Assembly: GCA_024276305.1 (NCBI GenBank)
Contig: JAJRXK010000019.1
Span: 43,294-107,293 of the forward strand
DNA length: 64,000 bases
Source of the DNA: Candidatus Krumholzibacteriota bacterium
GTDB taxonomy: Bacteria; Krumholzibacteriota; Krumholzibacteriia; JAJRXK01
Direction: 5' to 3'
In this document: piece after piece, positions 4,411 to 47,273 of the stretch
Position numbering within the stretch: the stretch's first letter is position 1
Layout of the letters: each line of letters starts with the position of its first letter
The notes under the pieces: model-generated
What the model was told of the DNA's origin: nothing
Database searches by the model: none
Seen by the model: only the letters and a program-made list of their open reading frames with translations
Program-made: the position numbers and the translations under genes

Positions 4411-5976
<1,566 letters not shown>

Positions 5977-6119
5977 TCAGAATTCCGTGCAACCCCCCCG
6001 CCGCGCGGGGCGTAGGCCTGGCGTCACCGACGCCTCGCCTCGGGGTGGGCTCGGGCTCAACCGCCAGTGGGCCTCGCAGGGATGTCCCGACCAGGAGTGC
6101 GACGGTGCAGAGTGATTCC

Positions 6120-6686: not shown

Positions 6687-6812
6687 CTTCGCCCCCAACG
6701 GTCACGACGAGTGGATAAGTACGTCGGGGGATGAACCGCTCGTTGTGGAGGAGGTGGGTGGCCCCAACTTCGGTTCGGGGCCACCGGCCTCCGACAACCC
6801 CGCCCCAGGGCG

Positions 6813-6848
6813 GATTCGTGGCGATTCGGGCTTCGGCGGCCACGAATC
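6813..6848 (+). promoter_or_regulatory. Perfect 10-bp inverted repeat (GATTCGTGGC-N16-GCCACGAATC) in the sigma / anti-sigma intergenic gap.
   Basis: Seen directly in the 209-bp gap between sigma-factor stop (6686) and anti-sigma start (6896). GATTCG occurs three times. Could be an attenuator, processing site or operator. Confidence 0.35.
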
Positions 6849-6895
6849 GCGGTGCCAGAACCGGGTCTCGACGGCCCAGGTCAGGAGATTCAGGC

Positions 6896-7597
6896 ATGGA
6901 CAACCGAGAGAGCCGTGAACGGGGATCGCCCGGTGAAATGCCGCCCGATGCGGAGGCCATCCGCCGGAGCTGGCAGGATTCTCTGCAGGACTATGTCGAC
7001 GGCACTCTGGACGAAAAGAAGGCTCTTCGCCTGCACCTCGATGCGCAGCGAATTGAGGCCCTGCAACGCGATCTCGACGAGATGCGGGAGCTCTTCTCCG
7101 CCCTCGATCGCACTCCGCGGGCGGAGCCGGGGGCCGACTTCGACCAGGCCGTTCTCGAAGGTCTTCCCTACGAATTCTATGCCTCGGCTCCGCGGCGTCC
7201 GCAGCGTGTTCTCATCTTTGCAGACGCGGACGCATCGGCGGTGACCCGGGGGCTGGGATACGGACAACGGCTGTCGATCATCCTCCTGCTCCTCGATCTC
7301 GGAGTTCTCGCTTTCGGTCGCACGATCGTGGCGCGACCCTTCGTCGCGGTCGCAGCGTGGTTGGGTGGGGGAGTCGAAGCTCTGGTCGATTCCACGGCCT
7401 CGTGGGGCTTCCTCCATTCGGTTGCTCTGGCGACGGCCTCGGGATACTCTGCGTTGCAAAGCTTCGTGAGCAGTACTGCCACGGGGCAGGCGTCGATCTG
7501 GATCCCGTTGACCCTGGTGTCGATCGTCGTGACGACCACTCTCCTGGCCCGGGTGCGGCTGCACCGTGAGCAAGCCGAGGTGGGGGCGAGTCGCTGA
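6896..7597 (+). CDS. Membrane-anchored anti-sigma factor (ChrR/RskA-like N-terminal anti-sigma domain, C-terminal TM region).
   Basis: Immediately downstream of the ECF sigma. N-terminus LQDYVDGTLDEKKALRLHLDAQRIEAL resembles the anti-sigma helix motif. Hydrophobic C-terminal half (LSIILLLLDLGVLAF..., IWIPLTLVSIVVTTTLLA). ATG 6896 with AGGAG RBS. Confidence 0.6.
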   Translation: MDNRESRERGSPGEMPPDAEAIRRSWQDSLQDYVDGTLDEKKALRLHLDAQRIEALQRDLDEMRELFSALDRTPRAEPGADFDQAVLEGLPYEFYASAPRRPQRVLIFADADASAVTRGLGYGQRLSIILLLLDLGVLAFGRTIVARPFVAVAAWLGGGVEALVDSTASWGFLHSVALATASGYSALQSFVSSTATGQASIWIPLTLVSIVVTTTLLARVRLHREQAEVGASR

Positions 7598-7664
7598 ATT
7601 CGCCCCGCCTTGCCAGGACTGAATTCGCGGAAGCGTGAGGGGAAAGCATTCGGGTGAGGGCATC

Positions 7665-9275
7665 ATGACGCGGCGGCGCACACTCCTGCGCAACTCGGTG
7701 TTGGGCACCTTCTGGGTGTTGGCACTGTTCTGTGGCCCCGGCATCCTCCAGGCCCAATCGCCTCCCCCGGAGACCCCCCCCACGCCTTCGACGGACGGGC
7801 CTTCGTCCCAGACCAGAAGCCTGTTGCAGGACCTCTACCGCCAGGTCTACGAACTCCAGCTGGAGCTCTCGCGCGTCGATTCCGAGGTGGACCGTCAGCG
7901 ATTGGAAATCGTTCGCTCCGACTTGCTGCGGCGGATCGAGAGTGTTCGCGATCGAGTGGCCAAAATGGAGCGGGATCAGGGCGAGGGAGACGGCGCTGCG
8001 GACTCTTCGGGCTTCGGCGCCATCGCGAGTGAGCTCGAGAAAATGGGGATCGACGCGGATTGGGAGTACCTCGGCAAGATCTTCCAGGACAATGCTCAGA
8101 CCCTTGGACGGAGTCTGACCGAGATCGGTCGGCAGCTCGAGAAGATGAGTGTCGATGTGGACGAAGAGCGGTCGAGGATTCGGATCGATACCGGTCAGGG
8201 AGGCAAGTTCTCCTTCACCGTACCCGAAGACGTCCAGAAGGAAATCCGTCGGGGCATTGCGCAGATGGGAGTGGAGTTGCAGCGAGTCCTCGCGGACAGC
8301 TCGGGCGGGAGTCTACCGGCCGAAGTGCGAGCACTTCTGAACGAGTTTCCCGAGGGGATGAGGCGATCGTGGCGTTTGGAGCGATCCGTCCCGCGGCATG
8401 TGGTCGCCCGCAACGTGTTCAAGTCTTTCGATGACTTCGAAGTCGCGGAGGACGAAATCATCGCTGGGGATCTCATCGTGATCGGTGGCGACGCCTATGT
8501 TGCTGGCGAGGTGCGAGGAAATATCTGGGTGCTCTTTGGCGATGTCCTCGTCGAGGGTCAGGGGGAGGTCGCCAAGGATGCGATCAGCGTTGGCGGTGAG
8601 GTGGTGGTCGAGGATGACGCCAGAGTGATGGGCAGCCGCTTCGACGCCGCGAGTTTCATTCCCGGGATCGGAATCGGATGGATCAGTCCCCATGAGTCTT
8701 CCCACTGGTTGTTGCACACGGTTCGGGTGGGAGTGCTGGCACTCTTGGCCCTGGTGGGTTTCGCTCTGGCCGGAGACCGTATTTCGACCATGGTCGATCA
8801 CAGCTCGAGGGCTCCGGGCCGGGATCTATTGGCCGGCGCGCTCTGGTTCCCGATGGCACTGGGCGCCTTCGTCGTCTCGTCCGTTGGATTGGCCATCTCG
8901 GTCATCGGCATCCCCGTGGTCATCGTATTGGCCGCCGCCTTCGGAACGGTGCTCCTCTTGGCCTATTTCAGCGCCTGTCTCTATCTCGGGCGCCGATTCT
9001 TCGAACTCTTCGCGGACCGGGATGGTCGACCGGACTGGGTCTATGCCCTTCTCGGACTGGGCTTGTTGGAGATGCCTGCGGTGTTGGTTCTCTCTCTCGC
9101 GGCGGCCACCGACGAGACCACCATGGTCGTGGGAGTGCAGGTGGTCGACTACCTGCTGAAGTTCTTGGCCTTGGCTCTGGGCTTCGGTTCTCTGGTCGCC
9201 ACTCGCCTCGGGGGACGGCCCCCGGAGCGGACTCCCGAGGGTTCCGGGGTGCTCCCGGCGCCGTCGGACCTCTGA
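7665..9275 (+). CDS. Hypothetical membrane protein: signal/TM, coiled coil, bactofilin-like (polymer-forming beta-helix) repeats, C-terminal polytopic TM domain.
   Basis: MTRRRTLLRNSVLGTFWVLALFCGPG. Coiled coil (LQDLYRQVYELQLELSRVDSEVDRQRLEI). IIAGDLIVIGGDAYVAGEVRGNIWVLFGDVLVEGQGEVAKDAISVGGEVVVEDDARVMG repeat block. At least 5 hydrophobic helices at the C-terminus. Part of the sigma/anti-sigma operon by position. Confidence 0.6.
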   Translation: MTRRRTLLRNSVLGTFWVLALFCGPGILQAQSPPPETPPTPSTDGPSSQTRSLLQDLYRQVYELQLELSRVDSEVDRQRLEIVRSDLLRRIESVRDRVAKMERDQGEGDGAADSSGFGAIASELEKMGIDADWEYLGKIFQDNAQTLGRSLTEIGRQLEKMSVDVDEERSRIRIDTGQGGKFSFTVPEDVQKEIRRGIAQMGVELQRVLADSSGGSLPAEVRALLNEFPEGMRRSWRLERSVPRHVVARNVFKSFDDFEVAEDEIIAGDLIVIGGDAYVAGEVRGNIWVLFGDVLVEGQGEVAKDAISVGGEVVVEDDARVMGSRFDAASFIPGIGIGWISPHESSHWLLHTVRVGVLALLALVGFALAGDRISTMVDHSSRAPGRDLLAGALWFPMALGAFVVSSVGLAISVIGIPVVIVLAAAFGTVLLLAYFSACLYLGRRFFELFADRDGRPDWVYALLGLGLLEMPAVLVLSLAAATDETTMVVGVQVVDYLLKFLALALGFGSLVATRLGGRPPERTPEGSGVLPAPSDL

Positions 9276-9418
9276 GGCGCTCTGGGCGCATCCTTTCCGA
9301 TTGCACCTCCTTCCTCTCCATCGTGTCCGATGATTCCCCCCCTTTCTGCGGGATCGGCGACCGCGGCCCCTGGCGAGCGGTGGATCTGCTAGGCTTTCGC
9401 GGTGGGGGAATAGCGAAC

Positions 9419-10498
9419 ATGATGACGATGACCAGTACTTACTCTTTTCGAAACAGTCCGCTGCGGCCTCCGGCCCCGGCTCCGGTCCTGACCTTCGTCA
9501 CCACCGGGCTGTGGGTGGTCTGCCTGCTCCTGTTCTCTTCTTCGGAGGGCCGAGCGGCGTTGCGTCCCGAAGTGATCGATGCCTCCTCCCTGACGAAGTC
9601 TGGGACGACGACCCCGGATGGACGGTGGCTGGACTTCGTCTCCCGGGACGGCTACCCCCTTCGGCTGCTCATCTCTCCCGATCCCAGTGACATTCTCAAC
9701 CCCGCGTTCGACGGACAGCTCCATCCGGTTCGGGCGGGGCAGGTGCGGGAGGCCTTGGCCGAGACCCGGGAGCTCGAGGGCGGTCCGACCGAAGTGGTGT
9801 TCTACTGCCTGCCCGGTTTGCCCGAGAAGGTGGGGCGGTCCTTCTCGGTGGGACGAGAGGTCTTTCTCAGCCCGACCTTCGGGCCGGCGGCTCTTCCCCA
9901 GATCGCGGCCACGGTGGTTCACGAGCTGGGGCATGTGGTGCAGCACGATCGCATCCCCTCCCTCGACTCGCGGGCGTGGCGGACCTATCGAGATCTGAGA
10001 GGTCTCGATCCCCAGACCTTCCGTGCGGATGCCGTCCACCGGAACCGGCCGAAGGAAATCTTCGCCGAGGATTTCCGGATGCTCTACGGCGGTGCTCTGG
10101 CCAACTACAGCGGAAGTCACGAGAATCACGACCTCGTCGATCCCGCTCGGGTGGAGGGATTGACCGAATACTTTCACGCTCTCCTCGTCGGTGGCTATTC
10201 CGAAGGACGGCCGGTGGCGGAAGTCAGCAACCATCCCAATCCCTTCAATCCCCAGACCACCATCGAGATTCGTCTGAGGCCGGAGCAAATCGCGGTCGCG
10301 CCGCGGGTGAAAGTGGACATCTACGATCTGCGCGGGCGGCGCGTGCGGAACTTCGATCCAATCCCGGCCGCTTCGGTCATCCTCTTGCCCTGGGACGGGA
10401 GTGACGATCGAGGGCAGAGTGTGGCCTCGGGTCGCTACACCTACCGTGTGCAGGTCGCCAACGAGTCGGTGTTCGGCTCCATGGTGTTGCTGCAGTGA
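9419..10498 (+). CDS. Putative zinc metalloprotease (HExxH) with N-terminal TM anchor and FlgD-Ig/T9SS-type C-terminal sorting domain.
   Basis: VVHELGHVVQHD motif. TM segment VLTFVTTGLWVVCLLLF. C-terminus NHPNPFNPQTTIEIRL...IYDLRGRRVRNF...WDGSDDRGQSVASGRYTYRVQ. ATGATG start with GGGGGAA RBS. Confidence 0.65.
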   Translation: MMTMTSTYSFRNSPLRPPAPAPVLTFVTTGLWVVCLLLFSSSEGRAALRPEVIDASSLTKSGTTTPDGRWLDFVSRDGYPLRLLISPDPSDILNPAFDGQLHPVRAGQVREALAETRELEGGPTEVVFYCLPGLPEKVGRSFSVGREVFLSPTFGPAALPQIAATVVHELGHVVQHDRIPSLDSRAWRTYRDLRGLDPQTFRADAVHRNRPKEIFAEDFRMLYGGALANYSGSHENHDLVDPARVEGLTEYFHALLVGGYSEGRPVAEVSNHPNPFNPQTTIEIRLRPEQIAVAPRVKVDIYDLRGRRVRNFDPIPAASVILLPWDGSDDRGQSVASGRYTYRVQVANESVFGSMVLLQ

Positions 10499-10513: not shown

Positions 10514-11593
10514 TCAGTCCTTGCGACGCTTCAGAGCGCGGCCCCGAGGGGCCCCGCTTCGTCGTTCTTGGCGATGCACGAGTTGGCCGCAGGCCCCCGA
10601 AACCTCCCGGCCCCGGCTGTCCCTCACGGTGGCCACGATTCCGTGCTGCCAGAGGTGATCGACCATGGCGTCGATCCGCGTTGGAGATGGTCTTTGGCCT
10701 GCGAAGCTCTCGATGGGATTGAGCGGGATCAGATTGACCTTGAAAGGACCGCTCCGCGCCAGCGACACCAGGATCTTCGCCTGTGCCAGGTCGTCATTCT
10801 CGCCGGCGATGATCGCGCATTCCAATGTGACCTTCCGACGGGAGCTCCGGCCGTAGTCCGCGGCGGCTTGGAGCAGCTCGGCCACCGGCACCTGCCCGGC
10901 GACGGGCATGAGCCTTCGGCGATCCTCGTCTCGGCCCGTGGTCAAGGAAATCGCGAGTCCCACCGGGCGCTGAAGATCCCCGAGCGCGGAGATGCCTTCC
11001 ATCAGTCCCGATGTGCTCACGGTGATGCGTCGCGCTCCGATTCCGATCCCCTCTTCGTGCATGAGGATCCGCAGAGCGGGGAGCAGGGCCTCGAGGTTGT
11101 CGAAGGGCTATCCCATTCCCATGAACACGAGGTTGGGCTTGGAACGACCTGGGTTCAGGCGGGAGAGGAGTCGCACTTGTTCGACGATCTCGGCGGTGGA
11201 GAGCTGGCGAATGATCCCCATCCGGCCCGTGGCGCAGAAAACGCACCCCATTCGGCATCCGACTTGTGAGGACAGGCAGTAGGTGAAGTTTGCGTCCTCG
11301 CGGGGAATCGCGACCGCTTCGATGCGCGCGCCGTCCGCCAACGCGATCAGGTGCTTCGTCGATCCTCCAGCCGTGGACTCCGACGCCACCACCTGGAGGG
11401 GAGCCAATCCCGGGTGGCGGGACCACCGCTCCCGCAGGGCCTGCGGGAGGACGGTCACTTCGTCGAGGGTGGCGACATTCTGAACGTAGAGGGCGCGAGC
11501 GAGTTGCCGTCCTCGATATGCCGGCTGGCCTTCGTCTAGGGCGAAGTCCTCGAGTTCCTCGGGGCTGAGGTCGGTGAGAGTCTGGGGCAACAC
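10514..11593 (-). pseudogene. rlmN: rlmN (radical-SAM 23S rRNA/tRNA m2A methyltransferase) interrupted by a single in-frame TAG at the conserved Glu of the MGMGEPL motif.
   Basis: N-terminal ORF ends ...CxxxCxFCATG...NLVFMGMG, then TAG (complement of 11105..11107), then PFDNLEALLPALRILMHEEGIGIGARRITVSTSG...KVNLIPLNP...ACGQL in the same frame. Expected sequence is MGMG-E-P[LF]. Both ORFs share one reading frame, so this is a point nonsense change, not a frameshift. Probable GTG start 11593. Confidence 0.8.
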
Positions 11594-11614
11594 GGCATTC
11601 CCACTTCTCGAGTC

Positions 11615-11630
11615 GGGTGTCTTGACAGGC
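11615..11630 (+). promoter_or_regulatory. 16-mer GGGTGTCTTGACAGGC containing a TTGACA -35-like hexamer; identical copy at 29491..29506.
   Basis: Exact 16-nt repeat, both copies intergenic and oriented toward + strand genes (arsR-ntrC here; the M23 peptidase at the other copy). Confidence 0.3.
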
Positions 11631-11707
11631 TTGTCCCGTTGAGAGAAGTTCGGCGGGAGTTCCGTCACCACTCCATCGCCACTCCACGGGGAGGAAGGGC
11701 TGCGCCG

Positions 11708-12100
11708 ATGACCTCTTCGGTTCAAGATCCCATGCATGGTAGCGTGGATCGATCCGGCCCGCTCTCCTCCGCGAGGGCGGCCCTGCTGGCGGCAGTAGCC
11801 GACCCGGTGCGCCAGAGGATCCTCTTCGAACTCACCGAAGCGACGACCGTGGGGGAGCTGTGCCGCCGGTTGGACATGGCGCAGCCCCGGGTCTCTCACC
11901 ACCTCGCCGTGCTGCGTCAGGCAGGTTTGGTGGTGGCCGAGGCCCAGGGACGTCAACGGCCTCATCGCTGGGCCGAAGCTCCGGCGGGTTCGGATCTGGA
12001 GCGGATTCAGGACTTGTTGAGAAGTTGGAGCGGGGGCGAAAGCAGAACTCGTCCCCCTTCATCTCCCCAGGCTGCCAATCTCGAAGATTTCCTTCTGTAG
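11708..12100 (+). CDS. ArsR/SmtB-family HTH transcriptional regulator.
   Basis: LLAAVADPVRQRILFELTEATTVGELCRRLDMAQPRVSHHLAVLRQAGLVVAE wHTH motif. ATG 11708 with GGAGGAAGG RBS; the ORF-track N-terminal extension is unlikely. Confidence 0.7.
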   Translation: MTSSVQDPMHGSVDRSGPLSSARAALLAAVADPVRQRILFELTEATTVGELCRRLDMAQPRVSHHLAVLRQAGLVVAEAQGRQRPHRWAEAPAGSDLERIQDLLRSWSGGESRTRPPSSPQAANLEDFLL

Positions 12101-12142
12101 GGCCGAGAGAGGGTCGATGGACCACCCAGGAGAGACGAAGGC

Positions 12143-13513
12143 ATGACCGAAGCCAAGGCGCGGATCCTGATCGCGGATGACGAGGTGGCCATACGCCAGA
12201 GCCTTGGCAGCATCCTGGGTTACGAGGGTTTCGAAGTCTGCGAAGCCGAGAACGGGCCCGCGGCCCTGGCGAAATTGGCCGCAGAAAGGATCGATCTCCT
12301 CCTTCTCGATGTGAAGATGCCCCAGATGGACGGTTTCGAGGTCATCGCTCGGCTTCGCGAGGAAGGTCTGGATCTGCCAGTGGTGGTGATCAGCGGTCAC
12401 GATGCAGTCAGCAACGCGGTGGAGGCCATCAAACGGGGAGCCTACGATTTCCTGGAGAAACCCTTCAAGAAGGAGGAGCTGCTCGTTCGGGTGAACAACG
12501 CCCTCGAACACGGCCGAGTGCGCCGGGCGAATCGGGAGCTCCTCGAGAGCACGCGGTCCGGAATGCAGCTCATCGGAGACAGTCCCGCGATGCACGAGGT
12601 GAAGTCTCTCATCGAAAAGGTCGCTCCGACCCCGGCCCGCGTTCTCATCACCGGGGAGAACGGAACGGGCAAGGAGCTGGTGGCCAAGGCCATCCACGCC
12701 GCCTCGACCCGGTCCAAGGCTCCCTTCGTGGAGGTGAATTGCGCCGCATTGCCCGAGGAACTCGTCGAGAGCGAGCTCTTCGGTCACGAGAAGGGCGCCT
12801 TCACCGGGGCGCAGCGTCGTCGCGAGGGAAAGTTCGAACGGGCCCACGGCGGGACGCTCTTCCTCGACGAGATCGGGGACATGAGCCCTTCGGCCCAGGC
12901 CAAGGTGCTTCGAGCTCTCGAGGACCAACGGATCGAACGCGTGGGGGGATCGGGACCCATCGACGTGGATGTCCGAATCCTCGCGGCCACCAATCGGGAT
13001 CTCCAGGACGACGACCTCGGTTTTCGTCAGGACCTCTTCTTTCGTCTCAACGTGATCTCGATCCACCTTCCGGCCCTTCGGGAGCGGCCCGAAGACATTC
13101 CCGCCCTCTTCGACCACTTTCTGGCCCGGGCGGCGGTGGAGATGAAGCAGAAGCCCAAGCCCTTGGATCCAGAAGTAGTCAATAAGCTGATCGCATACGA
13201 CTGGCCGGGCAATGTTCGGGAATTGCGGAATCTGGCCGAGCGTCTGGCGATCGTGGCTCCCGCAGAGGGGATCCGGGTGGCAGATCTTCCCGCTTCCATG
13301 GGAGGCCGGGAAACGGTGAGGGGAGGGGCGGAGTTCCTCGATGCGCCGACCTTTCAGGACTTCAAGGCGGCGAGCGAGGCCGTTTTCCTGCAGGCCAAAC
13401 TGGCGGAGAACGACTACAACATCAGCCGCACCGCGGAGCAGCTGGAAATGCAGCGCAGCAACCTCTACAAGAAGATTCAACGCTACGACCTGCGGACATC
13501 ACAGAAGGACTGA
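12143..13513 (+). CDS. Sigma-54-dependent response regulator (NtrC family: receiver + AAA+ sigma-54 activator + Fis-type HTH).
   Basis: Receiver ILIADDEVAIRQSL...DLLLLDVKMPQMDGFEV. AAA+ domain GENGTGKELVAKAIH, GAFTGA, ESELFGHEKGAFTGA. C-terminal HTH. No histidine kinase gene nearby. Confidence 0.9.
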   Translation: MTEAKARILIADDEVAIRQSLGSILGYEGFEVCEAENGPAALAKLAAERIDLLLLDVKMPQMDGFEVIARLREEGLDLPVVVISGHDAVSNAVEAIKRGAYDFLEKPFKKEELLVRVNNALEHGRVRRANRELLESTRSGMQLIGDSPAMHEVKSLIEKVAPTPARVLITGENGTGKELVAKAIHAASTRSKAPFVEVNCAALPEELVESELFGHEKGAFTGAQRRREGKFERAHGGTLFLDEIGDMSPSAQAKVLRALEDQRIERVGGSGPIDVDVRILAATNRDLQDDDLGFRQDLFFRLNVISIHLPALRERPEDIPALFDHFLARAAVEMKQKPKPLDPEVVNKLIAYDWPGNVRELRNLAERLAIVAPAEGIRVADLPASMGGRETVRGGAEFLDAPTFQDFKAASEAVFLQAKLAENDYNISRTAEQLEMQRSNLYKKIQRYDLRTSQKD

Positions 13514-13544
13514 GAGAGCGACGGTGGTGATCGCGTTCTGGCGA

Positions 13545-13574
13545 TTGACAGCAACCCCACGGCGTACGTATCGT
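13545..13574 (+). promoter_or_regulatory. Sigma-70-like promoter candidate (TTGACA-N18-TATCGT) upstream of the small secreted protein gene.
   Basis: Hexamers read directly from the sequence. Confidence 0.3.
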
Positions 13575-13725
13575 AGTAGGGTCATCTCGTGGGCTGGAGT
13601 GGGCTGCAGCGGGATCGACGACCCGCCCGTCGTGGATCTGCAAGGCGGCCCCCCGTGGTCCTGACCAGAAGCGCCCTCGAAGGAGGGTGGGATGACAAGA
13701 TCCGAAACCTAGGGAGTACGAACCC

Positions 13726-14085
13726 ATGAAGAGCCACGTATCTGCCGGATTGGCTCTGGCCCTCGTGGTGCTGGTTCTGTTGAGTGCGGTGCCTTCGTCA
13801 GCATTCGCTGGCGACGGCGAAGAGGACTTGACCCTGGGATTGGTGCGACCCACGACGGTTGCGCCCACCGCAACGCGCGGTCTCCCCACCGGAGGTACTG
13901 ACCCCGGAACGGGTACCGTGAACGGTGATCCCGAGGATTGGTTGGGCGGACAGAATCTGAAGCCGGATTCGAATCCTGGCAAGAATCTGACGGCGCCCGA
14001 TCCTCCCAGTAGTCTCTTTGTCCAGATCCAGCAATGGTGGCAGTCGATGCTTCGCCTTTCCGCGGAGACCATGGCTGGCCGCTGA
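13726..14085 (+). CDS. Small secreted protein (119 aa, signal peptide, G/P/T-rich), unknown function.
   Basis: MKSHVSAGLALALVVLVLLSAVPSSAFA signal peptide. GGGAG RBS. Sits between the two sigma-54 activator genes. Confidence 0.5.
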   Translation: MKSHVSAGLALALVVLVLLSAVPSSAFAGDGEEDLTLGLVRPTTVAPTATRGLPTGGTDPGTGTVNGDPEDWLGGQNLKPDSNPGKNLTAPDPPSSLFVQIQQWWQSMLRLSAETMAGR

Positions 14086-14204
14086 CCCGAACCGGCGCCT
14101 GAATCCGATGCACCTGGAGGGTGCAGCAGGCACCTCGAAATCTCGCGCAATGATGGAATCATCGCGAGGCACCTTTGAACCCCTTCTCGCCCAAGGGATG
14201 CCCG

Positions 14205-17200
14205 ATGCAGGACTTTCGTGACGGCCGCGAACCGAGTTCTTCGTTGCCGCACAACTTTCACTCAGGTCCCGCCCTCTCCTTCGAGCGGCTCGAGGAGGTG
14301 GGCGACCTTCACTTCCACGCGGCAGCCTACACTTCTGCCGTGGACTACTACCGTACTGCTCTCGATGCTTCACCCGCCGATGCCGATGCGCAGTCGACGC
14401 TTCTCAGGATTCGGTGCAAGCTGGCCGATTGTTTTCGGGTGCAGGGGCAGCTTCGGCGGGCCCTCGAGGAGTTCGAGACGGCGTCCACGGAGGCCGCGGG
14501 ACTGGGGACGATCGAGACCGCAGCGACCGACGTGCGAATCGCCCGGGTACTGCAGGCTCAAGGCCGCTATTCGGATGCCATCGATCTCGCGACTCGATCC
14601 TTCACCGTCCTTTCTCTGACCGACCGACACGGTGACGTTGCCATCGCGCAGATGGTTCTCGGTATTGCCCACGCTTGCCGTGGTCAGCTCGTCAAGGCGG
14701 AGGAATTCTTCCAAGACGCGCTGTCGACCTATCGCCGGATCGGGGATGAGGTCTCTCAGGCCCATGTGCTCAACAACCTCGCGCTGCTGGCCAAGAGGAA
14801 TTGCCGGTGGACGCGGGCCCTCCAGCTCTACGAGCGGGCCGAGAAGCTCTTCCACCGCCACGGCGCAAATGTCGAAATCTGTGCGCTCTATCTGAACAAA
14901 GCGGTGCTCCTGAGAAAGACCGGTCATCGAGTCGAATCGATGGCGTCGGCGCTCCAAGGCCTGCGATTGGCCCGGACCCGTGGAGACCAGGGAGGAATCC
15001 TGCGTTTCGATCTGATCCTGGGACAGCTCAAGATCGACGAATCTGCCTTTGCCGAGGCCCAGGATTACCTCCTCGAGGCCCGGGTCCTGGCGGAATCCGA
15101 GGACTCCCGTCGTGATCTCGCCTTGGCGGATGAGTTCCTCGGGGATTTGATGTTCGCCAAGGGAGAGTTGGACGACGCGATGTCCAACTACGATCGTGCG
15201 GCGGAGAGAGCGCTCGAGCTGAGTCCCACCAACGATATTCTGGCCGAAGTCTCGCGACGTCGCGCCGAACTCCACCTCCGGCGCGAAGAGCCGGAGCTCG
15301 CACTCGAGGAAGTGCACCGAGGTGTGGAGCTGGTCGACGCTTCGGGTGAGGAGTTCGAACGCGGCTTCTTGGAGCGGACGCGGGGGGGGGCCCTCACTCT
15401 CCTGGATCATGTCGAGGAGGGCTTGATCTCCTACCGCGAGAGCCTCGACACCTTCCGGCGGCTGCATCTGGATCTGGAGGTCTTCCGCACTCTGCTGTGC
15501 TTGTCCGAGGCGTTGGTTCGGCGCGGGGGAGAGAAGAACCTCGTCGTGGCCCGGGCTCGGTTGAACGAAGCCCTGGCCTTGGAGCTGCCCCCGGAGAGCG
15601 GAGTGCGTCCCGGACGGGCTCAGTTTGCATTGGCTCGCGTGGAGTTGTCCCTGGGGAACTTCGACGAGGCCTTGATCACTCTCTGCGATTTGGAACGCAG
15701 CGCTGGCGATGACGATGCACTGCACGATGCGGAGCTGTCCCTGCTCCGAGAGGAAATCGAACACGCGGTGTCGGCGGATGCCAGGGGTGGGGTGGAGTCC
15801 TTCCACTTCGTGCGTGATCTCTCGGATCGAGTGGCTCCGAACGGGCGACACGACGAGGCGACGATCTCGTCGACGCTGGTGACCGCAGCCGAGCAATTGG
15901 GGGCGCAGCGTGCGTTCGTGGCCCTTCGCGACGAGCGTGGCAGGGTACGGATTCTTGCGAACCACGAGATGGCGCTCGTGCACGCGCGCGCTCTCGCGCT
16001 GCGAGCGTGGGAGCAATTGTCGGGTCAGGAGCCGGGCCACGCTCGGGTGTGGTCGCAGGCCGCATCGGATCCGGCGTGGATCGGCGGGGTGGCCGAGAAC
16101 CGGCGTCCTCTCGATTCCGTCGTGGGGATACGACTCTTCGACGCCGCATCGGGAAGGGAAGGGCTCTTCTACTTCGATGCGGCGGTGAAGGACAGGATCC
16201 CCTTCAGTCCCGACTCCATCGCCATGGCGTCGGCTTGTGTGGCCATGTTGGGCGAAAGCATCCTTCACCGCGTCCCCTCCGACAGCCTGCTCGACGATGA
16301 AGCCAGTCCCTTCTCTCGCTTTCTCACCCAGAGTGATCGGGTTCGCGAGGTTCTGAGTCTCTGTGCGAAGGTGGCCCCGAGTCCCTACACCGTGTTGTTC
16401 ACCGGAGAGACCGGGACGGGCAAGGGCCTGTTGGCCCGGATCATCCATGATCTGAGTCCGCGCTGCGACCGCAGCTTCGTCACCGTCAATTGCGCGGCTA
16501 TTCCGGAGACTCTCCTCGAGAGCGAGCTCTTCGGACACGTTCGGGGGGCCTTTACCGGGGCCGACCGTGACAAGGATGGACTCATCGTCTCGGCGGAGGG
16601 CGGGACGCTCTTCCTGGACGAGATCGGGAAGATGCCTCTGCCCATGCAGGCGAAACTCCTACAGTTCCTCGACTCGCGCGAGGTGCGTCCGGTGGGGTCT
16701 TCGCAGATGCGATCCGTCGATGTCCGGGTCATTTGCGCCAGCAAGCGCAATCTCGAGACCATGATCACCACCGGCGAGTTCCTGGAGGACCTCTACTACC
16801 GCCTCTTGGATTTTCCGGTGTCCATTCCCCCTCTGCGCGACCGAGGAGACGACATCGTACTCCTGGCGCGGGAGTTCGTGGCGCGAAGTTGCGAGGACCT
16901 GGGGCGACCGGAGCCGGTGTTGACTCGGGGTTTCGTCTCGAGGCTGCGGGCCTACGATTGGCCGGGCAATGTGCGGCAGATGGAAAAGGTCATGCGGCGG
17001 GCGGTGGTGCTCGCTGCTTCGGAGGAGCGCCTGCGAGAGATGCATCTCCCCGCCGATCTGGGTCCGGCCGCCGTGGACGATTCCGACGGCGATCCCCCGG
17101 AGTTTCGCCCGCTCAAGGAGCAGGTCGCGGAACTCGAGCGGAGCGTGCTCCGGCGCAGTCTGGAATCGACGGGATGGAATCGTTCGGAGACCGCCCGACG

Positions 17201-17267
17201 GCTGAAGATTTCCTATCCGACCCTGCTGCAGAAGATCCGCAGTTATGGGTTGAAGGAAAACTGCTGA
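14205..17267 (+). CDS. Large TPR-repeat / GAF-like / AAA+ sigma-54-dependent transcriptional activator (bEBP without receiver domain).
   Basis: N-terminal TPR-like helical repeats (AAAYTSAVDYYRTALDASP..., LNNLALLAKRNCRWTRALQLYERAEKL...). Central GAF-like region. Sigma-54 interaction domain GETGTGKGLLARIIH...ESELFGHVRGAFTGA...GTLFLDEIG. C-terminal Fis HTH (RSETARRLKISYPTLLQKI). ATG 14205 preferred over TTG 14175. Confidence 0.8.
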   Translation: MQDFRDGREPSSSLPHNFHSGPALSFERLEEVGDLHFHAAAYTSAVDYYRTALDASPADADAQSTLLRIRCKLADCFRVQGQLRRALEEFETASTEAAGLGTIETAATDVRIARVLQAQGRYSDAIDLATRSFTVLSLTDRHGDVAIAQMVLGIAHACRGQLVKAEEFFQDALSTYRRIGDEVSQAHVLNNLALLAKRNCRWTRALQLYERAEKLFHRHGANVEICALYLNKAVLLRKTGHRVESMASALQGLRLARTRGDQGGILRFDLILGQLKIDESAFAEAQDYLLEARVLAESEDSRRDLALADEFLGDLMFAKGELDDAMSNYDRAAERALELSPTNDILAEVSRRRAELHLRREEPELALEEVHRGVELVDASGEEFERGFLERTRGGALTLLDHVEEGLISYRESLDTFRRLHLDLEVFRTLLCLSEALVRRGGEKNLVVARARLNEALALELPPESGVRPGRAQFALARVELSLGNFDEALITLCDLERSAGDDDALHDAELSLLREEIEHAVSADARGGVESFHFVRDLSDRVAPNGRHDEATISSTLVTAAEQLGAQRAFVALRDERGRVRILANHEMALVHARALALRAWEQLSGQEPGHARVWSQAASDPAWIGGVAENRRPLDSVVGIRLFDAASGREGLFYFDAAVKDRIPFSPDSIAMASACVAMLGESILHRVPSDSLLDDEASPFSRFLTQSDRVREVLSLCAKVAPSPYTVLFTGETGTGKGLLARIIHDLSPRCDRSFVTVNCAAIPETLLESELFGHVRGAFTGADRDKDGLIVSAEGGTLFLDEIGKMPLPMQAKLLQFLDSREVRPVGSSQMRSVDVRVICASKRNLETMITTGEFLEDLYYRLLDFPVSIPPLRDRGDDIVLLAREFVARSCEDLGRPEPVLTRGFVSRLRAYDWPGNVRQMEKVMRRAVVLAASEERLREMHLPADLGPAAVDDSDGDPPEFRPLKEQVAELERSVLRRSLESTGWNRSETARRLKISYPTLLQKIRSYGLKENC

Positions 17268-17829
17268 CCGGCCTTTCCTCTATCGTCTTTTTTGATAGAT
17301 GCCAAGTCATTGAAAAGCAATGACTTCAATGCAGCGTAGTCCCTCGCTCTCTAAACTTTCTTTCCAGTTGCCGGCGAGGGTTTCGGGCCATCTTCCCGCA
17401 GTGGTGTCTGGAGTCGTAAAGCGTTGTCGATCAACACATTAGCTTTTCGCAAAAGATGGCATGCCGGCATGGATGGTGCAGTGGCTCCTCTTGATCGGTC
17501 ACCAAAGCAGTCGTGTACCGGTCGTCCAGTGAGGCCTTCGGGTCCACACAGCGGGGGGTGGCGGGAGAGTTTCTCTCCGATCACCGGCCAGAATGAGGTG
17601 GAGGCCCTTCAATTCGCTCTTTCCGTTGCCGTACAGGAGGTGGGGTCCTCGTGGGGTGATGGTCAGAGGTTCGGGTCTTTGCCCTCGCTCGCACTCTCCG
17701 TGCATTTCGAAAGGATCTTGGTCCTTCAGTCGGCGAGCCGCAGAGGCATCCGCATCAGGGTTTGGCGAGATCCCTGATGCAAGCATGGAGCCCCTGGTTC
17801 GATCGAGGGACCGCGGTCTGGACGCAGGC

Positions 17830-17859
17830 GGGTCGCCCCTTCGGGGGCGGCCCGTTTTT
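17830..17859 (+). terminator. Strong intrinsic terminator (10-bp GC stem, UUCG loop, U-tract) about 560 nt downstream of the nearest + strand gene end.
   Basis: GGGTCGCCCC-TTCG-GGGGCGGCCC followed by GTTTTTGTG. Confidence 0.6.
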
Positions 17860-18110
17860 GTGAATGTGCTGGAATGACGGGGCTTTCGGGCGGCAAGAGG
17901 CCGAGTTCGCTGTCCTCGTCGGGCTACAATCTCTGTCGCCCGCCCGCTACGATCTGGCTCCGAGACGGCCCTCGTCTGCCTCCAGGCTCATTCCCACTGC
18001 GGATCCGGCCGCCGTCCGACAGGATTCAAGTCATGTAGATACAACAGCTTAGCATCTGTTACACCGAATTGGCGGGCCCGGGGACCCAGAGCAGGATTGA
18101 TTGTGGACCG

Positions 18111-18126
18111 TGGCACGAGGGGTGCG
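18111..18126 (+). promoter_or_regulatory. Candidate sigma-54 (-24/-12) promoter TGGCACgagggGTGCg.
   Basis: TGGCAC-N5-xTGC with canonical GG/GC spacing, 45 nt upstream of lipoprotein gene start 18171 and downstream of two sigma-54 activator genes. Confidence 0.5.
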
Positions 18127-18170
18127 AGAGCAGGGTTGTGCTCCCCCAGCACCCTGCGGAGGTGAATGCC

Positions 18171-19094
18171 ATGCTCTCCGATCGAAAACCTTCCTGCTCT
18201 CGCGGCGGATTCCGAAGTCTCAGGCTTTGGACTCTTTTGGGCGGCGCAGTCGCCCTCCTCTTCGCGGGATGCGGCGAAGATGTGGTGGATCGAACTCCTC
18301 CCGCGATCCCCTCGGGAGTCTACAGTATTACTGCCGACCAGCAGGTGATCCTGCGGTGGACTCCGAACCGCGAAGCCGATTTGGCCGGATATTCGGTCCT
18401 GTGGAACGACGACGGCGGAGCCGAATACTTCATCATCGCCACCTTCGACGCTCTCGACGAGAACCACTTCATGGTCGTCGATGTCCAGGATCCGTCGCTG
18501 GACTACGTGGAGTTCGCGGACCGAGGGGACGACGGAACGGGTTTGGCCAATGGTTCGGAGAATTGGTATGCGGTTCTGGCCTTCGACCACGAAGGAAACG
18601 AGTCCGACCTCAGCCTCGAGGAGATTCGGGACGTTCCCCGTCCGGAGGGCAAGGTGCAGCTGCGCGACCTGAACTTCTTGGCCGCGGAGTCGGGCTTCGA
18701 CTTCTCCGGAGAAGTGATTCGACCGGCGACCGATCCCGCCGCTGACTTCTGGTTCGAGACCGTGGGCAACGCCGGATTCCTGAACGCAAACGTCGCTCGA
18801 GTGCGGGTCCAGGACTATGGGAACGTGGGCTTCGACGTCCTGTCCGAGGCGCCGATCGGAGGTTGGTCCGTGGTCGGGCGAGTCGAGGCGATTGTCGGAC
18901 ACACTTATGCATTCGAGATCGCGGCCGGTTCCTCGGATGTACGATATGCCAAGGTGACGGTGTTCGACATGGACGTCGTCGGTCGGATCGTGGACCTGGA
19001 TTGGGCCTACCAGCCCGTGGTCAACGAATACCAGCTCAAGGGTCTCTCCACGAGGAGATCCGGCGCGGTGCGCGTTCGCAAGAGCGCGCCCTGA
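18171..19094 (+). CDS. Lipoprotein with fibronectin-III-like beta-sandwich domain, unknown function.
   Basis: Lipobox LLFAGCGED after MLSDRKPSCSRGGFRSLRLWTLLGGAVA. FN3-like block SGVYSITADQQVILRWTPNREADLAGYSVLW. GGAGGTG RBS before ATG 18171. Confidence 0.7.
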   Translation: MLSDRKPSCSRGGFRSLRLWTLLGGAVALLFAGCGEDVVDRTPPAIPSGVYSITADQQVILRWTPNREADLAGYSVLWNDDGGAEYFIIATFDALDENHFMVVDVQDPSLDYVEFADRGDDGTGLANGSENWYAVLAFDHEGNESDLSLEEIRDVPRPEGKVQLRDLNFLAAESGFDFSGEVIRPATDPAADFWFETVGNAGFLNANVARVRVQDYGNVGFDVLSEAPIGGWSVVGRVEAIVGHTYAFEIAAGSSDVRYAKVTVFDMDVVGRIVDLDWAYQPVVNEYQLKGLSTRRSGAVRVRKSAP

Positions 19095-19110
19095 TGCGAA
19101 GGAGACCACA

Positions 19111-20949
19111 ATGAAGACTTCGAGAGCCTTTGGTTGGTGGAGTTACCTGTTCATTGCCCTCTCGGTCCTGGGCGGGAGCGTGCTGTCGCTTTCATCGGCG
19201 CACGCTGCGGCTCCGACCTCACGGGCGGTCTACGCATTTCTTCAGGGGGGAGAGATCGACGCGGACTTGGTCGGAGATCCGGCCACGCCCAGCCGGGATC
19301 TGAGAGTGAATGTTTGGCACGGCCGTGAGGACAACGACACCTATCGGCGCGGCGAAGCGATGACCGTGCACTTCCGCACGAATGCAGATCTCTACGTGGT
19401 CGTCTACCGCATCGACAGCGATGGGCAGGTAGAAGTGCTGTGGCCGACCACTCGATACGATGACGGATTCGTCTACGCCGATCACACCTACACTCTTCCC
19501 CGTCCGGGTTCGCCGGTGCGGCTGCGTGCGAGTCAGTTGCGTGGTGTGGAATACATCGAGGCCATCGCCAGCGAATATCCTTTCGATCTCCGCAATCTGG
19601 CCATCGATTTTCGTTTCGATCCGGATGCGCGGACGAACTACGACTACGAGGTATCGGGCGATCCCTTCCTGGCGGTGAACGACATCAACTTCGCCATCAC
19701 TGGACTCGACGCAGATGTCGAGTACGTGGTGACCGATTGGGCTCACCTCTATGTGGAGTCCAAGGTGGAGTATGCGCGCTATACCTGCCGACAGTGCCAC
19801 GATCAGGATGACGACGAGTACCATCCCTATGTCGACAAGTGTTCGACGGTGAACATCTACAACGATTGGGGTTGGCAGACGAGTTGGTACGATCGATTCG
19901 GTTGGTATCCCCTCTACTACGAACCCCCTTACTACTATTGGGACATCTCTTTCGGACGTCCCTATTGGTATCCCTACTATCCGCTCGTCTACAGTTGGCC
20001 TGCCTACTCGGTCTACAGTCGACCTTATCCCGTCTACTGGTGGTACGACTCTCCTTACGACTATGTCGACTACCGGGTGCGCTACAAGAAGAACTGGCGC
20101 CACTACCGATCTCTCTACGATCTGGACAATCCGCGAGTCCGCAGGGCGGTGCGTGATTTCGATCAGGCGCGAGGCACGGACCGGAGCCCGGTGAGCATGC
20201 GCGATGGGCTTCGCTCTCGGTCGGCTCGGGGAAGGATCGACGAGGATCGGCTGGTTCGGAGTCGGATGCCCGCGCGCAAGCACCGTGGGGACGTGGGGCC
20301 TCTGGTCCAGAGTCGGCGGGGAGGGTCGGATTTGGGCGACCGCACGCGGAGCCGCGGGGGACGAGTCCGCACGGATCTGTCGCGGCGGTCCCAGACCCGT
20401 CGGCTCGAGAGCCTGCCTCGAGTGAGGGACGCGGATCGGAGTCGGGACCTTCGCAACCGTGGGGAACGTCGGTGGACCCGGCCGGTCATTCGCAATCGTG
20501 AGGAGCCGCACAAGGGCCGAAACCGGTCAGGATCCGCGGTCGATCGAGATCGCAGTCGCCGCCGGTCGGAGTCTGTGGTCGACCGAGATCGCAGTCGTCG
20601 CCGGTCAGGATCCGCGGTCGACAAGGATCGCCGGCGACAACGATCGCAGTCGGAGGCCCGGAAGGATCGGAGCGGGGGACGGGAACGCAGCCGTGAGGTG
20701 CGCCCGCCGAGTGGAGAACGTCGAGGGCGCAAGGGCGGTGGAGATGTGGCGCCGACTCGGAAGGAAGCTCCGCGATCCCGAGGGCAGAAGGTCGAGCCCA
20801 CGCGGCGTCAACGGGGATCCCGCGGTGGAGGCCGCGAGGTGGCTCCGTCCCGAGGAAGTCGGTCTCCCTCGAAATCTTCCGCTCCTCGGCGGTCTTCCAG
20901 GAAGAGCGGTGGTAATTCCAGACACGGATCCCGAGGCCGAAAGGGCTGA
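19111..20949 (+). CDS. Secreted DUF4384-like protein with aromatic (Y/W/P)-rich region and long Arg/Ser/Asp-rich (RS-like) tandem-repeat tail.
   Basis: Signal peptide FIALSVLGGSVLSLSSAHA. DUF4384-like core (VNVWHGREDNDTYRRGEAMTVHFRTNADLYVVVYRIDSDGQVEVLWP). YNDWGWQTSWYDRFGWYPLYYEPPYYYWD...PYPVYWWYDSPYDY region. C-terminal about 250 aa dominated by R, S, D, G (DRDRSRRRSESVVDRDRSRRRSGS...). Starts 16 nt after the lipoprotein gene, probably co-transcribed. Confidence 0.7.
   Translation: MKTSRAFGWWSYLFIALSVLGGSVLSLSSAHAAAPTSRAVYAFLQGGEIDADLVGDPATPSRDLRVNVWHGREDNDTYRRGEAMTVHFRTNADLYVVVYRIDSDGQVEVLWPTTRYDDGFVYADHTYTLPRPGSPVRLRASQLRGVEYIEAIASEYPFDLRNLAIDFRFDPDARTNYDYEVSGDPFLAVNDINFAITGLDADVEYVVTDWAHLYVESKVEYARYTCRQCHDQDDDEYHPYVDKCSTVNIYNDWGWQTSWYDRFGWYPLYYEPPYYYWDISFGRPYWYPYYPLVYSWPAYSVYSRPYPVYWWYDSPYDYVDYRVRYKKNWRHYRSLYDLDNPRVRRAVRDFDQARGTDRSPVSMRDGLRSRSARGRIDEDRLVRSRMPARKHRGDVGPLVQSRRGGSDLGDRTRSRGGRVRTDLSRRSQTRRLESLPRVRDADRSRDLRNRGERRWTRPVIRNREEPHKGRNRSGSAVDRDRSRRRSESVVDRDRSRRRSGSAVDKDRRRQRSQSEARKDRSGGRERSREVRPPSGERRGRKGGGDVAPTRKEAPRSRGQKVEPTRRQRGSRGGGREVAPSRGSRSPSKSSAPRRSSRKSGGNSRHGSRGRKG
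20523..20655 (+). repeat. 39-bp imperfect tandem repeat (about 3.4 copies) encoding 13-aa units [AV]VD[RK]DR[SR]RR[RQ]S.S.
   Basis: Units begin at 20539, 20578 and 20617 (gtcgatcgagatcgcagtcgcc... / gtcgaccgagatcgcagtcgtc... / gtcgacaaggatcgccggcgac...). Confidence 0.6.
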
Positions 20950-21168: not shown

Positions 21169-21198
21169 TTGACCGTGGGTGGGGACGATTCCTATACT
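21169..21198 (+). promoter_or_regulatory. Sigma-70-like promoter candidate TTGACC-N18-TATACT.
   Basis: About 30 nt upstream of ATG 21227. Confidence 0.4.
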
Positions 21199-21226
21199 GC
21201 GCCGTCTTCATCCCCGTGAGGTAGCC

Positions 21227-24688: not shown

Positions 24689-24728
24689 AACGAAGCCGCC
24701 GATGCAATGGCAATACGAGGAGAATCTC

Positions 24729-46999: not shown

Positions 47000-47273
47000 G
47001 GCGACTGCGACTCATGGTAAGTAGCACATGGGATTCTGTGTTTGCGGAACACGACTTCCCTCTTTCCGGTGAATCCAAATTCTCGACGCCGAAACGATGG
47101 GCCTTGCGAGGCTCGGAGTTTCTAACCGGCCTGGGGACACGGGGTGCTTGCACTCCCGGACAACCAGGACAACCCGTGCCAACTGCCACCCCGTATGTCG
47201 ATCTCACCTTCGCCGGTGTTTCGGCATAAGTCTTTCACATCTTCGCCATCTACAAACGATGGGGGGACAAAGC

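Follow-up and report, generated by a model that had tools for sequence, protein, structure and literature searches.

What do two sigma-54 activators control when their genes stand side by side with no histidine kinase gene next to them? This question is raised by a 64 kb stretch of DNA from Candidatus Krumholzibacteriota (hereafter the window), in which the annotated block at 11594-17267 and the stretch downstream of it, up to 25668, were analysed. The block encodes an ArsR-type regulator, an NtrC-type response regulator, a small exported protein and a large activator in which TPR repeats and a predicted GAF domain precede the AAA+ domain; the two activator genes are real and are conserved across this uncultured phylum. 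A preliminary description of the block, which stopped at the end of the second activator gene, missed a second sigma-54 promoter (at 17465) and a structured noncoding RNA lying just beyond. Our main result is a new RNA family and, around it, a module of two activators and two promoters conserved across the candidate phylum, the expression and function of which are predicted from sequence. We put at about 70% the probability that this chromosomal locus, conserved in Candidatus Krumholzibacteriota, is a sigma-54 control module with two inputs and two outputs.

The region that follows the second activator gene was searched for -24/-12 elements by weighted scanning, both for the window and for the four first relatives, and a family pattern scan was then extended to 33 loci. 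Promoter A (CGGCATGGATGGTGCA, 17465-17480, + strand) lies ~200 bp after the activator stop codon, and promoter B (TGGCACGAGGGGTGCG, 18111-18126, + strand) ~50 bp before the next gene; both recur at matching places in the window and in 4/4 of the first relatives. Promoter A stands 20-30 nt upstream of the RNA described below, with a strict pattern in 31 of 35 copies and in 33 of 35 when inspection is included, the remaining two being imperfect. Promoter B is present as TGGCAYG-N4-NTGC[GC] in all 33 loci, 150-430 nt past the RNA, with a Shine-Dalgarno sequence and a start codon within 35-75 nt downstream. The sites look like genuine sigma-54 promoters, having GG and GC elements exactly 10 nt apart, a context resembling TGGCAC-N5-TTGCW and a conserved position upstream of a transcription unit. 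Indeed, among the 67 family-type sigma-54 sites found within ~8 kb either side of the RNA in the 33 loci, 61 are promoters A and B, and the family pattern occurs in the 64-kb window only at these two promoters and at one intragenic site (63571). Matches to the generic sigma-54 consensus, on the other hand, are at chance level in the window (10 found vs 6.3 expected), and calls made from a single sequence were therefore discarded. This is what became of one of the two promoters proposed in the preliminary description, that at 61202 (TGGATCAGGGCTTGCA), which departs from the consensus at 3 positions and does not fit the family-specific pattern; the other, at 18111, is promoter B, and its conservation in 33/33 loci shows it to be real.

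Between the two promoters, blocks of conserved sequence end in a GC-rich hairpin followed by a U-run. They belong to a structured noncoding RNA predicted to be ~370 nt long (~17491-17860, + strand), the 5' end of which is placed from promoter A and the body from the conserved blocks and a covariance model. Iterated nhmmer searching from a five-sequence alignment retrieved the RNA from 35 sources, always on the + strand and directly after the activator gene. A metagenome pattern scan brought at least 22 further true copies, all adjoining the activator and DUF4384 genes where the flanks permit a check; among the matches listed in that scan, 98 of 120 were recognized as chance GC-rich matches by nhmmer, Rfam and direct reading. 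An automatic RNAalifold model (R1) was dropped, having only 15 pairs, and was replaced by a covariance model for the central domain (R2) that uses a structure of 48 pairs. The latter identifies at least 57 loci, with exactly one match in each and scores of 50-149 bits (77 bits, E=9e-15, for the window copy). Full-length copies measure 296-395 nt and the central domain 163-174 nt in all 33.

The central domain corresponds to 17549-17713 in the window. The fold predicted by RNAalifold on a MAFFT alignment contains a long-range helix enclosing a hairpin with the motif ACCGGC (~17583-17588), and two stems, one nested in the other, that lead to a hairpin with a 7-nt loop, GGUGGGG (17639-17645), which is invariant together with its closing pairs. 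In the 3' domain, AAAGAGCCC pairs with GGGCUCUUU just before the U-run and encloses a hairpin (17753-17779) with an invariant GGCGAGA loop; the terminator occupies 17830-17860. On the sequence-only alignment, 84% of the predicted pairs form, and double (compensatory) changes were seen in 54 of the 67 pairs. Covariation scored 0.466, vs 0.24 for shuffles (0 of 500 reach 0.466) and 0.10-0.20 for slid partners, an excess that is partly circular, the pairs having been counted on the alignment that yielded the structure. A covariance-model alignment of 54 distinct sequences gives the same pairing statistics. G-U pairs are frequent, which fixes the strand of the RNA. The window copy has a minimum free energy of -178.9 kcal/mol (z=-3.25), and a terminator hairpin with a U-run closes most copies.

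The loci fall into two groups, which differ in the form of a candidate enhancer described below, the window having the group 1 form. When the window copy and one group-2 copy were compared with Rfam 15, no match was obtained at E<=1 apart from noise over the terminator, which rules out RNase P, transfer-messenger RNA, signal recognition particle RNA, 6S RNA and the other families of that database. A sponge of the CsrB or CrcZ type was also rejected, the alignment containing no repeated GGA loops or A-rich motifs, only a single AACAAGAA in group 2. As judged from these alignments and searches, the RNA is a previously undescribed, highly structured molecule that founds a new family.

One might ask whether the conserved stretch is instead a missed small protein gene, or a purely DNA-level regulatory sequence (extended enhancer or architectural sites) serving promoter B. 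Gene callers do put 226-aa open reading frames (ORFs) in the gap in two relatives, and enhancers may be distant from sigma-54 promoters. However, these ORFs run in opposite directions in the two loci, and that of locus L003, which was translated, looks like a chance high-GC ORF. A protein-coding gene was rejected on the finding that, around the invariant motifs, every frame is interrupted in some copies, even the best staying open in 24 of 33. Moreover, compensatory helix changes with G-U pairs on one strand only form a pattern that neither DNA sites nor coding sequence would make, and the stretch is bracketed by a promoter and a terminator. We consider these readings very improbable.

The position of the RNA, on the same strand as the downstream operon, directly upstream of it and ended by a terminator, suggests another possibility: it could be a cis-acting leader of that operon (a riboswitch or a protein-dependent attenuator), with transcripts from promoter A stopping at the terminator except when a ligand or protein remodels the 3' domain, which would provide a second, conditional route of expression beside promoter B. 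RNA and operon do co-occur in nearly every locus, and in group 2 the 5' strand of the terminator (AAAGAGCCC) is also the long-range partner that encloses the GGCGAGA hairpin, an arrangement that an expression platform could exploit. Against this, a distinct sigma-54 promoter, having an enhancer of its own, separates the RNA from the operon, the 150-430 nt spacer after the terminator is poorly conserved but for this enhancer, and an RNA of 300-390 nt is far larger than typical leaders. Because promoter B is independent and fully conserved, we regard a leader role as unlikely, and retain that of a stand-alone RNA.

Which activator would act at which promoter? Two palindromes offer an answer. The first, a candidate upstream activating sequence (UAS-A), is the palindrome TCTATC-N9-GATAGA at 17279-17299, directly after the large activator gene, with a weaker second copy at 17349-17367; it is the only TATC..GATA palindrome of its kind in the window. 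In the family it is a dyad of 19-20 bp, which reads TATCAA-N6-TTGATA in group 1 but TGTAAA-N6-TTTAYA in group 2. The motif pattern was matched 48 times in the 469 kb of loci scanned, and 46 of these matches fall within 180 bp upstream of promoter A (7.7 per kb vs 0.004 per kb elsewhere). The second candidate, UAS-B (GTCCTCGTCGGGCTA-N8-GTCGC, 17912-17939), is a degenerate form of the family motif GTCCC-N5/6-GGGAC, with a third GTCC half-site. Most related loci have a clear copy, situated 10-60 nt past the terminator of the RNA and 150-280 nt upstream of promoter B, and the motif is enriched there (5.8 per kb vs 1.07 per kb).

The recognition helices of the two activators behave as their putative targets do. 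That of the receiver activator, MQRSNLYKKI, is invariant across loci, as is UAS-B. That of the TPR-GAF activator reads SYPTLLQKI in group 1 and SYPNLLKKI in group 2, and thus tracks the change in UAS-A. Loci L035 and L036 (SYPTILKKI, TGTAAA) and locus L046 (SYPSLLQKI, TATAAA..TTGATA) fit a rule by which, at one position of the half-site, Q goes with C/G and K with A/T. From this co-variation on one side and this invariance on the other we infer the pairing of activators with promoters: the TPR-GAF activator would act through UAS-A on the RNA, and the receiver activator through UAS-B on the operon, an assignment for which we think the odds somewhat better than even.

Another palindrome was noticed between UAS-A and promoter A, ~30-70 bp upstream of the latter, in L011, L008, L047, L026, L043 and other loci (~17413-17442 in the window). 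Its arms differ among species yet remain complementary (ACTCATTG..CAATGAGT, ACTTGTTG..CAACAAGT, ACCCGTT..AGCGGTT), and in the window a sequence resembling a site for integration host factor, GATCAACACATTAG, is found at 17429-17442. The palindrome might serve to bend DNA or to bind a protein, or else form an RNA hairpin when transcription reads through.

Several observations weigh against the module as we propose it, besides the partial circularity of the covariation excess. In the window itself, promoter A begins with CGG instead of TGG and UAS-B is weak and degenerate. The co-variation of helix and palindrome amounts to three or four lineages and is confounded with phylogeny. The U-tract that follows the terminal hairpin is poor in some group-1 copies. 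A divergent subgroup (L028, L035, L036 and L045), as well as L046, was missed by nhmmer and by model R2 run with its filters off. In L028, L035 and L045, promoter A (recognized by eye in L035), GTGGGGTC, GGCGAGA and promoter B succeed one another in the same order, so that homology rests there on promoter and motif order read by eye; the sequence of L036 is cut short, and the scan gave neither promoter nor motif in it, promoter A and the start of the RNA being readable by eye; in L046 the two promoters are 627 nt apart, with no RNA motifs between them. No conserved complementarity of the invariant RNA loops to the promoter-B leaders was found by eye, nor any target or partner of the RNA. Finally, the transcript, its ends and its dependence on sigma-54 are predictions.

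Three members of the divergent subgroup (L028, L035 and L045) display what looks like a third RNA subtype, with the GGUGGGG and GGCGAGA hairpins, both promoters and a different central domain (~9290-9800 in L028 and L045). In these three loci, tblastn detected no DUF4384 gene downstream.

The two proteins presumed to read these sites are, by their sequence features, bona fide sigma-54 activators. Both match PF00158 (at 2e-69 and 5e-65), and both carry the GAFTGA loop, Walker motifs (GETGTGKG/GENGTGKE) and an HTH_8 domain of the Fis type. The receiver activator (12143-13513, + strand) is of the NtrC type, with Pfam matches to Response_reg (2e-33), Sigma54_activat (2e-69) and HTH_8, and falls below every NCBIfam equivalog cutoff. 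Its receiver domain (residues 8-117) has the DD acidic pocket, the phospho-acceptor Asp in LLLLDVKMP, the Ser in VISGH and the Lys in EKPF. No histidine kinase (HisKA, HATPase_c) was found among the ~40 window ORFs scanned, or in the precomputed Pfam annotation of four syntenic loci, and the regulator is thus an orphan, as had been proposed. In our model, it forms the first input, and would presumably be phosphorylated by a kinase encoded elsewhere.

The second activator (14205-17267, + strand) has 1020 aa when read from the ATG at 14205, a form identical to database protein P0001; a TTG at 14175 is an alternative start that would give 1030 aa. Pfam identifies TPR_12, TPR_MalT, Sigma54_activat, AAA_lid_14 and HTH_8, and no receiver domain, in agreement with the preliminary description, according to which TPR repeats and a GAF-like domain replace the receiver. 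The approximate limits are 14280-15704 for the TPR array, which is followed by a long linker helix, 15855-16268 for GAF, 16326-17072 for AAA+ with its lid and 17124-17246 for HTH_8. An AlphaFold model built from 45 homologues, with a predicted local distance difference test score of 89, places ~12 TPR helix pairs at residues 26-500 and an alpha/beta domain at 551-688, with a long helix between them and AAA+ and HTH following. In the window copy the GAF domain is below the Pfam threshold (E=0.002). Among 26 family members, GAF_2, GAF and GAF_3 match 18, 14 and 11 respectively, the best GAF_2 value being 4.5e-8, and a profile of region 543-700 made from 26 relatives matches GAF domains in the PDB, namely those of PtsP (3trc, 1.8e-4), DevS and the activator Nlh2 (range 1.8e-4 to 0.07). 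Foldseek, used with the full model, returned sigma-54 AAA+ structures only (ZraR, LuxO, FlrC, NtrC1) and was uninformative for the GAF region. Taken together, the modelled fold, the PDB profile and the Pfam matches of the relatives support a TPR-GAF-AAA+-HTH architecture, with a GAF fold immediately N-terminal to the AAA+ domain.

How unusual is this design? The protein has ~50 full-length homologues, at 34-55% identity, some of which are annotated at source as "GAF, ATPase and Fis domain / TPR repeat protein", and it reaches no NCBIfam equivalog cutoff. When its 700-aa sensor region was compared by phmmer with 1.84 billion cluster representatives, 40 proteins were found at E<=1e-30; among the 150 matches listed, ~60 are colinear relatives of ~1000 aa and the rest generic TPR proteins. 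Longer kinase-TPR-GAF-sigma-54 proteins of other phyla have only the C-terminal third in common with it. The earlier statement that such an activator is rare thus holds for the specific N-terminal module, with its 40 clusters, but not for the combination of TPR and/or GAF with a sigma-54 AAA+ domain, which is common in environmental phyla. Sequence comparison indicates a family that is small and clade-restricted, built on a general design that is not unusual.

In NifA, NorR and FhlA, the GAF domain represses the AAA+ ring until its ligand binds. The TPR-GAF activator resembles these proteins and Nlh2 of Aquifex in the order GAF-AAA+-HTH_8, in its intact GAFTGA and in its GAF profile, which shows similarity to that of Nlh2 among others; it differs from them in having ~500 residues of TPR repeats and a long helix ahead of GAF. 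By analogy with NifA, NorR and FhlA, we propose that the sensor region constitutes the second input and would hold the AAA+ ring inactive until a ligand binds GAF, a protein partner binds the TPR array, or both; the array would be a protein-binding surface added to the activator.

The gene lying between the two activator genes (13726-14085, + strand) encodes a small protein of 119 aa with a signal-peptide-like N-terminus and no Pfam or NCBIfam family. Aligned with four orthologues, it shows a signal peptide, then an acidic middle region in which the motif GDP[DE] is conserved (GDPEDWLGGQN in the window), and a C-terminal amphipathic or hydrophobic helix. A lack of conservation in relatives had been named beforehand as an observation that would speak against the preliminary description; the ORF is kept in the same gap, with its motif, in ~37 of the 43 related loci scanned. 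In the glrK-qseG-glrR operon, a small exported lipoprotein is likewise encoded between regulatory genes. Upstream of the small ORF, a sigma-70-like sequence, TTGACA-18-TATCGT (13545-13574), is the only one in 11000-19500, a number not above chance (1 found vs 0.7 expected).

The preliminary description had made this protein a candidate signal or sensor partner. In an extended form of that proposal, it would act as a signal to, or as a sensor partner of, the TPR-GAF activator, and the two activators would serve one pathway, possibly as mixed oligomers acting on shared promoters, in the manner of HrpR/HrpS. The genes for the receiver activator, the small protein and the TPR-GAF activator lie next to one another and are conserved together throughout the phylum, TPR arrays serve in contacts between proteins, and adjacent paralogous activators that co-assemble are known. 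On the other hand, we found nothing in support of a signal or sensor role. With its signal peptide, the small protein is predicted to lie outside the cytoplasm, while the activator is cytoplasmic and has no membrane segment. Moreover, the two palindromes differ, as do the two recognition helices, which speaks for separate DNA targets. We find the single-pathway scheme quite unlikely, and prefer that of two activators with separate outputs.

The genes keep a conserved order. Four orthologues of the TPR-GAF activator, 46-54% identical, are all syntenic. In the corresponding contigs (L001-L004) the order is enolase (- strand), an ECF (extracytoplasmic function) sigma factor, two unknown genes, rlmN (- strand), ArsR in some cases, the receiver activator, the small ORF and the TPR-GAF activator, then, after a gap of ~900 bp, a gene of ~320 aa, DUF4384, an FG-GAP protein of ~1140 aa and a PorV-like protein. 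Without ArsR, the block is syntenic in ~47 Krumholzibacteriota loci; a one-genome-per-species scan with the sensor region gave 43 loci, nearly all labelled Candidatus Krumholzibacteriota or Krumholzibacteriia. By tblastn, the receiver activator lies ~600 bp upstream of the TPR activator in 47/47 loci, at 51-73% identity, and DUF4384 and the large protein follow downstream in nearly all of them. In the window, the two activator genes are separated by 661-691 bp, close to the 660 bp first given, and all the ORFs and domains initially listed were found as described by ORF and Pfam analysis. The word "island" does not apply. The GC content is flat across the window, which gives no sign of a foreign island, and the block is set in conserved housekeeping synteny (enolase, ECF sigma, rlmN).

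The ArsR/SmtB-family winged-helix regulator (11708-12100, + strand; Pfam HTH_5 1.3e-12; NCBIfam NF033788, 67.7 bits vs a cutoff of 55) had been described as an operon partner of the receiver activator. It does adjoin it in the window, where the activator gene begins 42 bp after the ArsR gene, but tblastn finds it in only ~8 of the 47 related loci, which makes it an accessory part.

Two further observations concern the upstream flank. Between enolase and rlmN, the genes for the ECF sigma factor and two unknown proteins of ~220-290 aa and ~530-555 aa (~5727-9275 in the window) are syntenic with the activator block in 4/4 relatives (~400-4800 in L001-L004), and may form an ECF sigma/anti-sigma module of the same envelope-related neighbourhood. 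The rlmN orthologue (10514-11593, - strand), 55% identical to the rlmN of L003 over a single tblastn segment, contains an in-frame TAG at ~11108-11110, in place of the conserved Glu expected in the radical-SAM motif GMGEP (MGMG*PFDN). An assembly error, decay into a pseudogene or recoding may account for it.

The genes downstream of promoter B point to the cell envelope. The first encodes a lipoprotein of 307 aa (18171-19094, + strand) with the lipobox LFAGC and a Shine-Dalgarno sequence, GGAGGTG, starting at 18158. The TTG at 18069 chosen by the ORF tool was rejected as its start, being upstream of promoter B; the start is the ATG at 18171. The protein has no Pfam or NCBIfam family and resembles a 312-aa protein of locus L003. 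It is followed by a DUF4384-domain protein of 612 aa (19111-20949, + strand; Pfam DUF4384 3e-17) and by a predicted cargo of the type IX secretion system (T9SS) of 1169 aa (21179-24688, + strand). The latter has Pfam matches to FG-GAP_3 and Por_Secre_tail, FG-GAP repeats, a T9SS sorting domain at its C-terminus (NCBIfam Por_Secre_tail, 25.4 bits vs a cutoff of 23) and an M6-like, possibly inactive, metalloprotease region, which matches the NCBIfam family of T9SS-dependent M6-like inactivated metalloproteases at 3e-58, a value that is below the cutoff. The next ORF (24631-25668, + strand) encodes an outer-membrane protein of the PorV/PorQ family (NCBIfam PorV_fam, 156.8 bits vs a cutoff of 90; Pfam UPF0164 and PorV), found at the same position in syntenic loci. 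Its true start is probably downstream of 24631, because the ORF overlaps the end of the preceding gene.

An HtrA/DegQ protease gene (26815-28335) comes after the PorV/PorQ gene. Four proteins of the window (1079-2374, 9323-10498, 21179-24688 and 47097-50528) have C-terminal domains of the FlgD_ig or Por_Secre_tail type, which are sorting signals of the T9SS type, and the region is thus rich in predicted secreted or surface proteins. In the promoter-B leaders of seven group-2 loci (L013, L014, L015, L017, L022, L024 and L029), a motif GGCGAAC(G/A)TG was seen at ~+10 to +25; it is absent from the window.

The proposed module would thus have two outputs. From promoter A, a stand-alone structured noncoding RNA of ~300-390 nt would be made, ending at an intrinsic terminator; from promoter B, the envelope operon comprising the lipoprotein, DUF4384, M6-like T9SS cargo and PorV/PorQ genes. 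By analogy with CbrB-CrcZ, PxrR-Pxr, LuxO-Qrr and GlrR-GlmY, the RNA is most likely a trans-acting regulatory output of the TPR-GAF sensor. The operon fits a theme recognized by Francke et al., who linked sigma-54 to control of the cell exterior (PMC3162934).

The closest parallel is that of CbrB and CrcZ. In all Pseudomonas genomes analysed, crcZ lies downstream of cbrB, and both CbrB and RpoN are needed (PMC5113210). The two systems have the same layout, conserved across the clade: an activator gene, then, on the same strand, an enhancer, a -24/-12 promoter, a long noncoding RNA and a terminator (PMC5113210). The RNAs are similar in size (CrcZ is ~400 nt). They share no sequence or Rfam similarity, however, and whereas CrcZ titrates Hfq/Crc through repeated A-rich motifs, the Krumholzibacteriota RNA has one such motif (AACAAGAA), in group 2 only, its conserved elements being G-rich hairpin loops in a tightly paired, multi-helix fold. 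CbrB, moreover, is a response regulator with an adjacent kinase, while the presumed activator of the RNA described here is a TPR-GAF sensor.

Similar arrangements have been described elsewhere. In Myxococcus, pxr lies immediately downstream of the gene for the NtrC-like PxrR (Nla19), with a predicted sigma-54 promoter and an enhancer region (PMC5684412), and glmY is sigma-54 dependent (PMC3162934). PxrR-Pxr, LuxO-Qrr of Vibrio and GlrR-GlmY of enterobacteria all resemble the locus in combining an activator of the NtrC family with a sigma-54-dependent RNA beside the regulator gene (PMC5684412, PMC3162934). Pxr, Qrr and GlmY, by contrast, are simple stem-loop RNAs of ~100-200 nt that act by base-pairing or protein titration, while the RNA studied here is two to three times larger and has long-range helices and a central domain of constant length; also, all three systems have a cognate kinase, and the Krumholzibacteriota locus has no linked one. 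A regulatory RNA that depends on sigma-54 and adjoins its activator gene is therefore already known as a kind; the RNA family itself is new.

The size and fold of the RNA invite comparison with the large structured bacterial RNAs OLE, GOLLD, HEARO, ROOL and raiA. Like them, it is several hundred nucleotides long, has multi-helix junctions and covaries strongly, and its invariant nucleotides are mostly found in loops and junctions. It differs from them in matching none of their Rfam families, in being smaller than most and in its confinement to one candidate phylum, and none of them is known to be tied to a dedicated sigma-54 activator and promoter. The RNA could represent a new class of large, complex-folded bacterial RNA with a role beyond antisense pairing, as a ribonucleoprotein scaffold, a ligand or protein sensor or a catalyst, the synthesis of which would be gated by the dedicated TPR-GAF activator. 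We offer this idea tentatively and hold it to be rather doubtful.

The 1.1-Mb contig L168 encodes a different TPR-type sigma-54 activator, of 1029 aa, which has close relatives labelled Eisenbacteria. Past its gene comes a gap of ~975 bp free of genes (9090-10065) and facing a convergent gene, with a sigma-54-like site, TGGCACGCTTAATGCG, at 9458, ~470 nt before a strong hairpin (9933-9968), and, just past the hairpin, short tandem repeats (ctctgcgggggcctcgc, several copies) at 9950-10035. Model R2, with its filters off, has no match in the gaps of L168 and L169. L168 may be another activator-plus-RNA pair, a hint that uncultured phyla may more widely combine a sensor activator with an RNA of its own, a design so far unrecognised.

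We know of no cultured member of the Krumholzibacteriota. Our literature searches yielded no paper on this group and sigma-54; full-text searching, which was partly uninformative, yielded no described regulatory RNA. The family could be submitted to Rfam with a seed alignment of 57 sequences, the locus may serve as a marker for Krumholzibacteriota genomes, and the two enhancer motifs, with the assignment of activators to promoters, are testable in a heterologous host. In most accounts, what a sigma-54 system switches on is a protein-coding operon; the few RNA outputs recognized so far (Qrr, GlmY, CrcZ and Pxr) hold central positions in the regulation of quorum sensing, cell-envelope synthesis, carbon use and development. 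The present locus would add a further, phylum-wide case of an RNA as sigma-54 output, an RNA of unusual size and degree of structure, with a TPR-GAF sensor devoid of a receiver as its likely activator. Situated beside a sigma-54 unit for a T9SS cargo and a PorV/PorQ protein, this RNA may connect envelope remodelling to RNA-based control in the Krumholzibacteriota.

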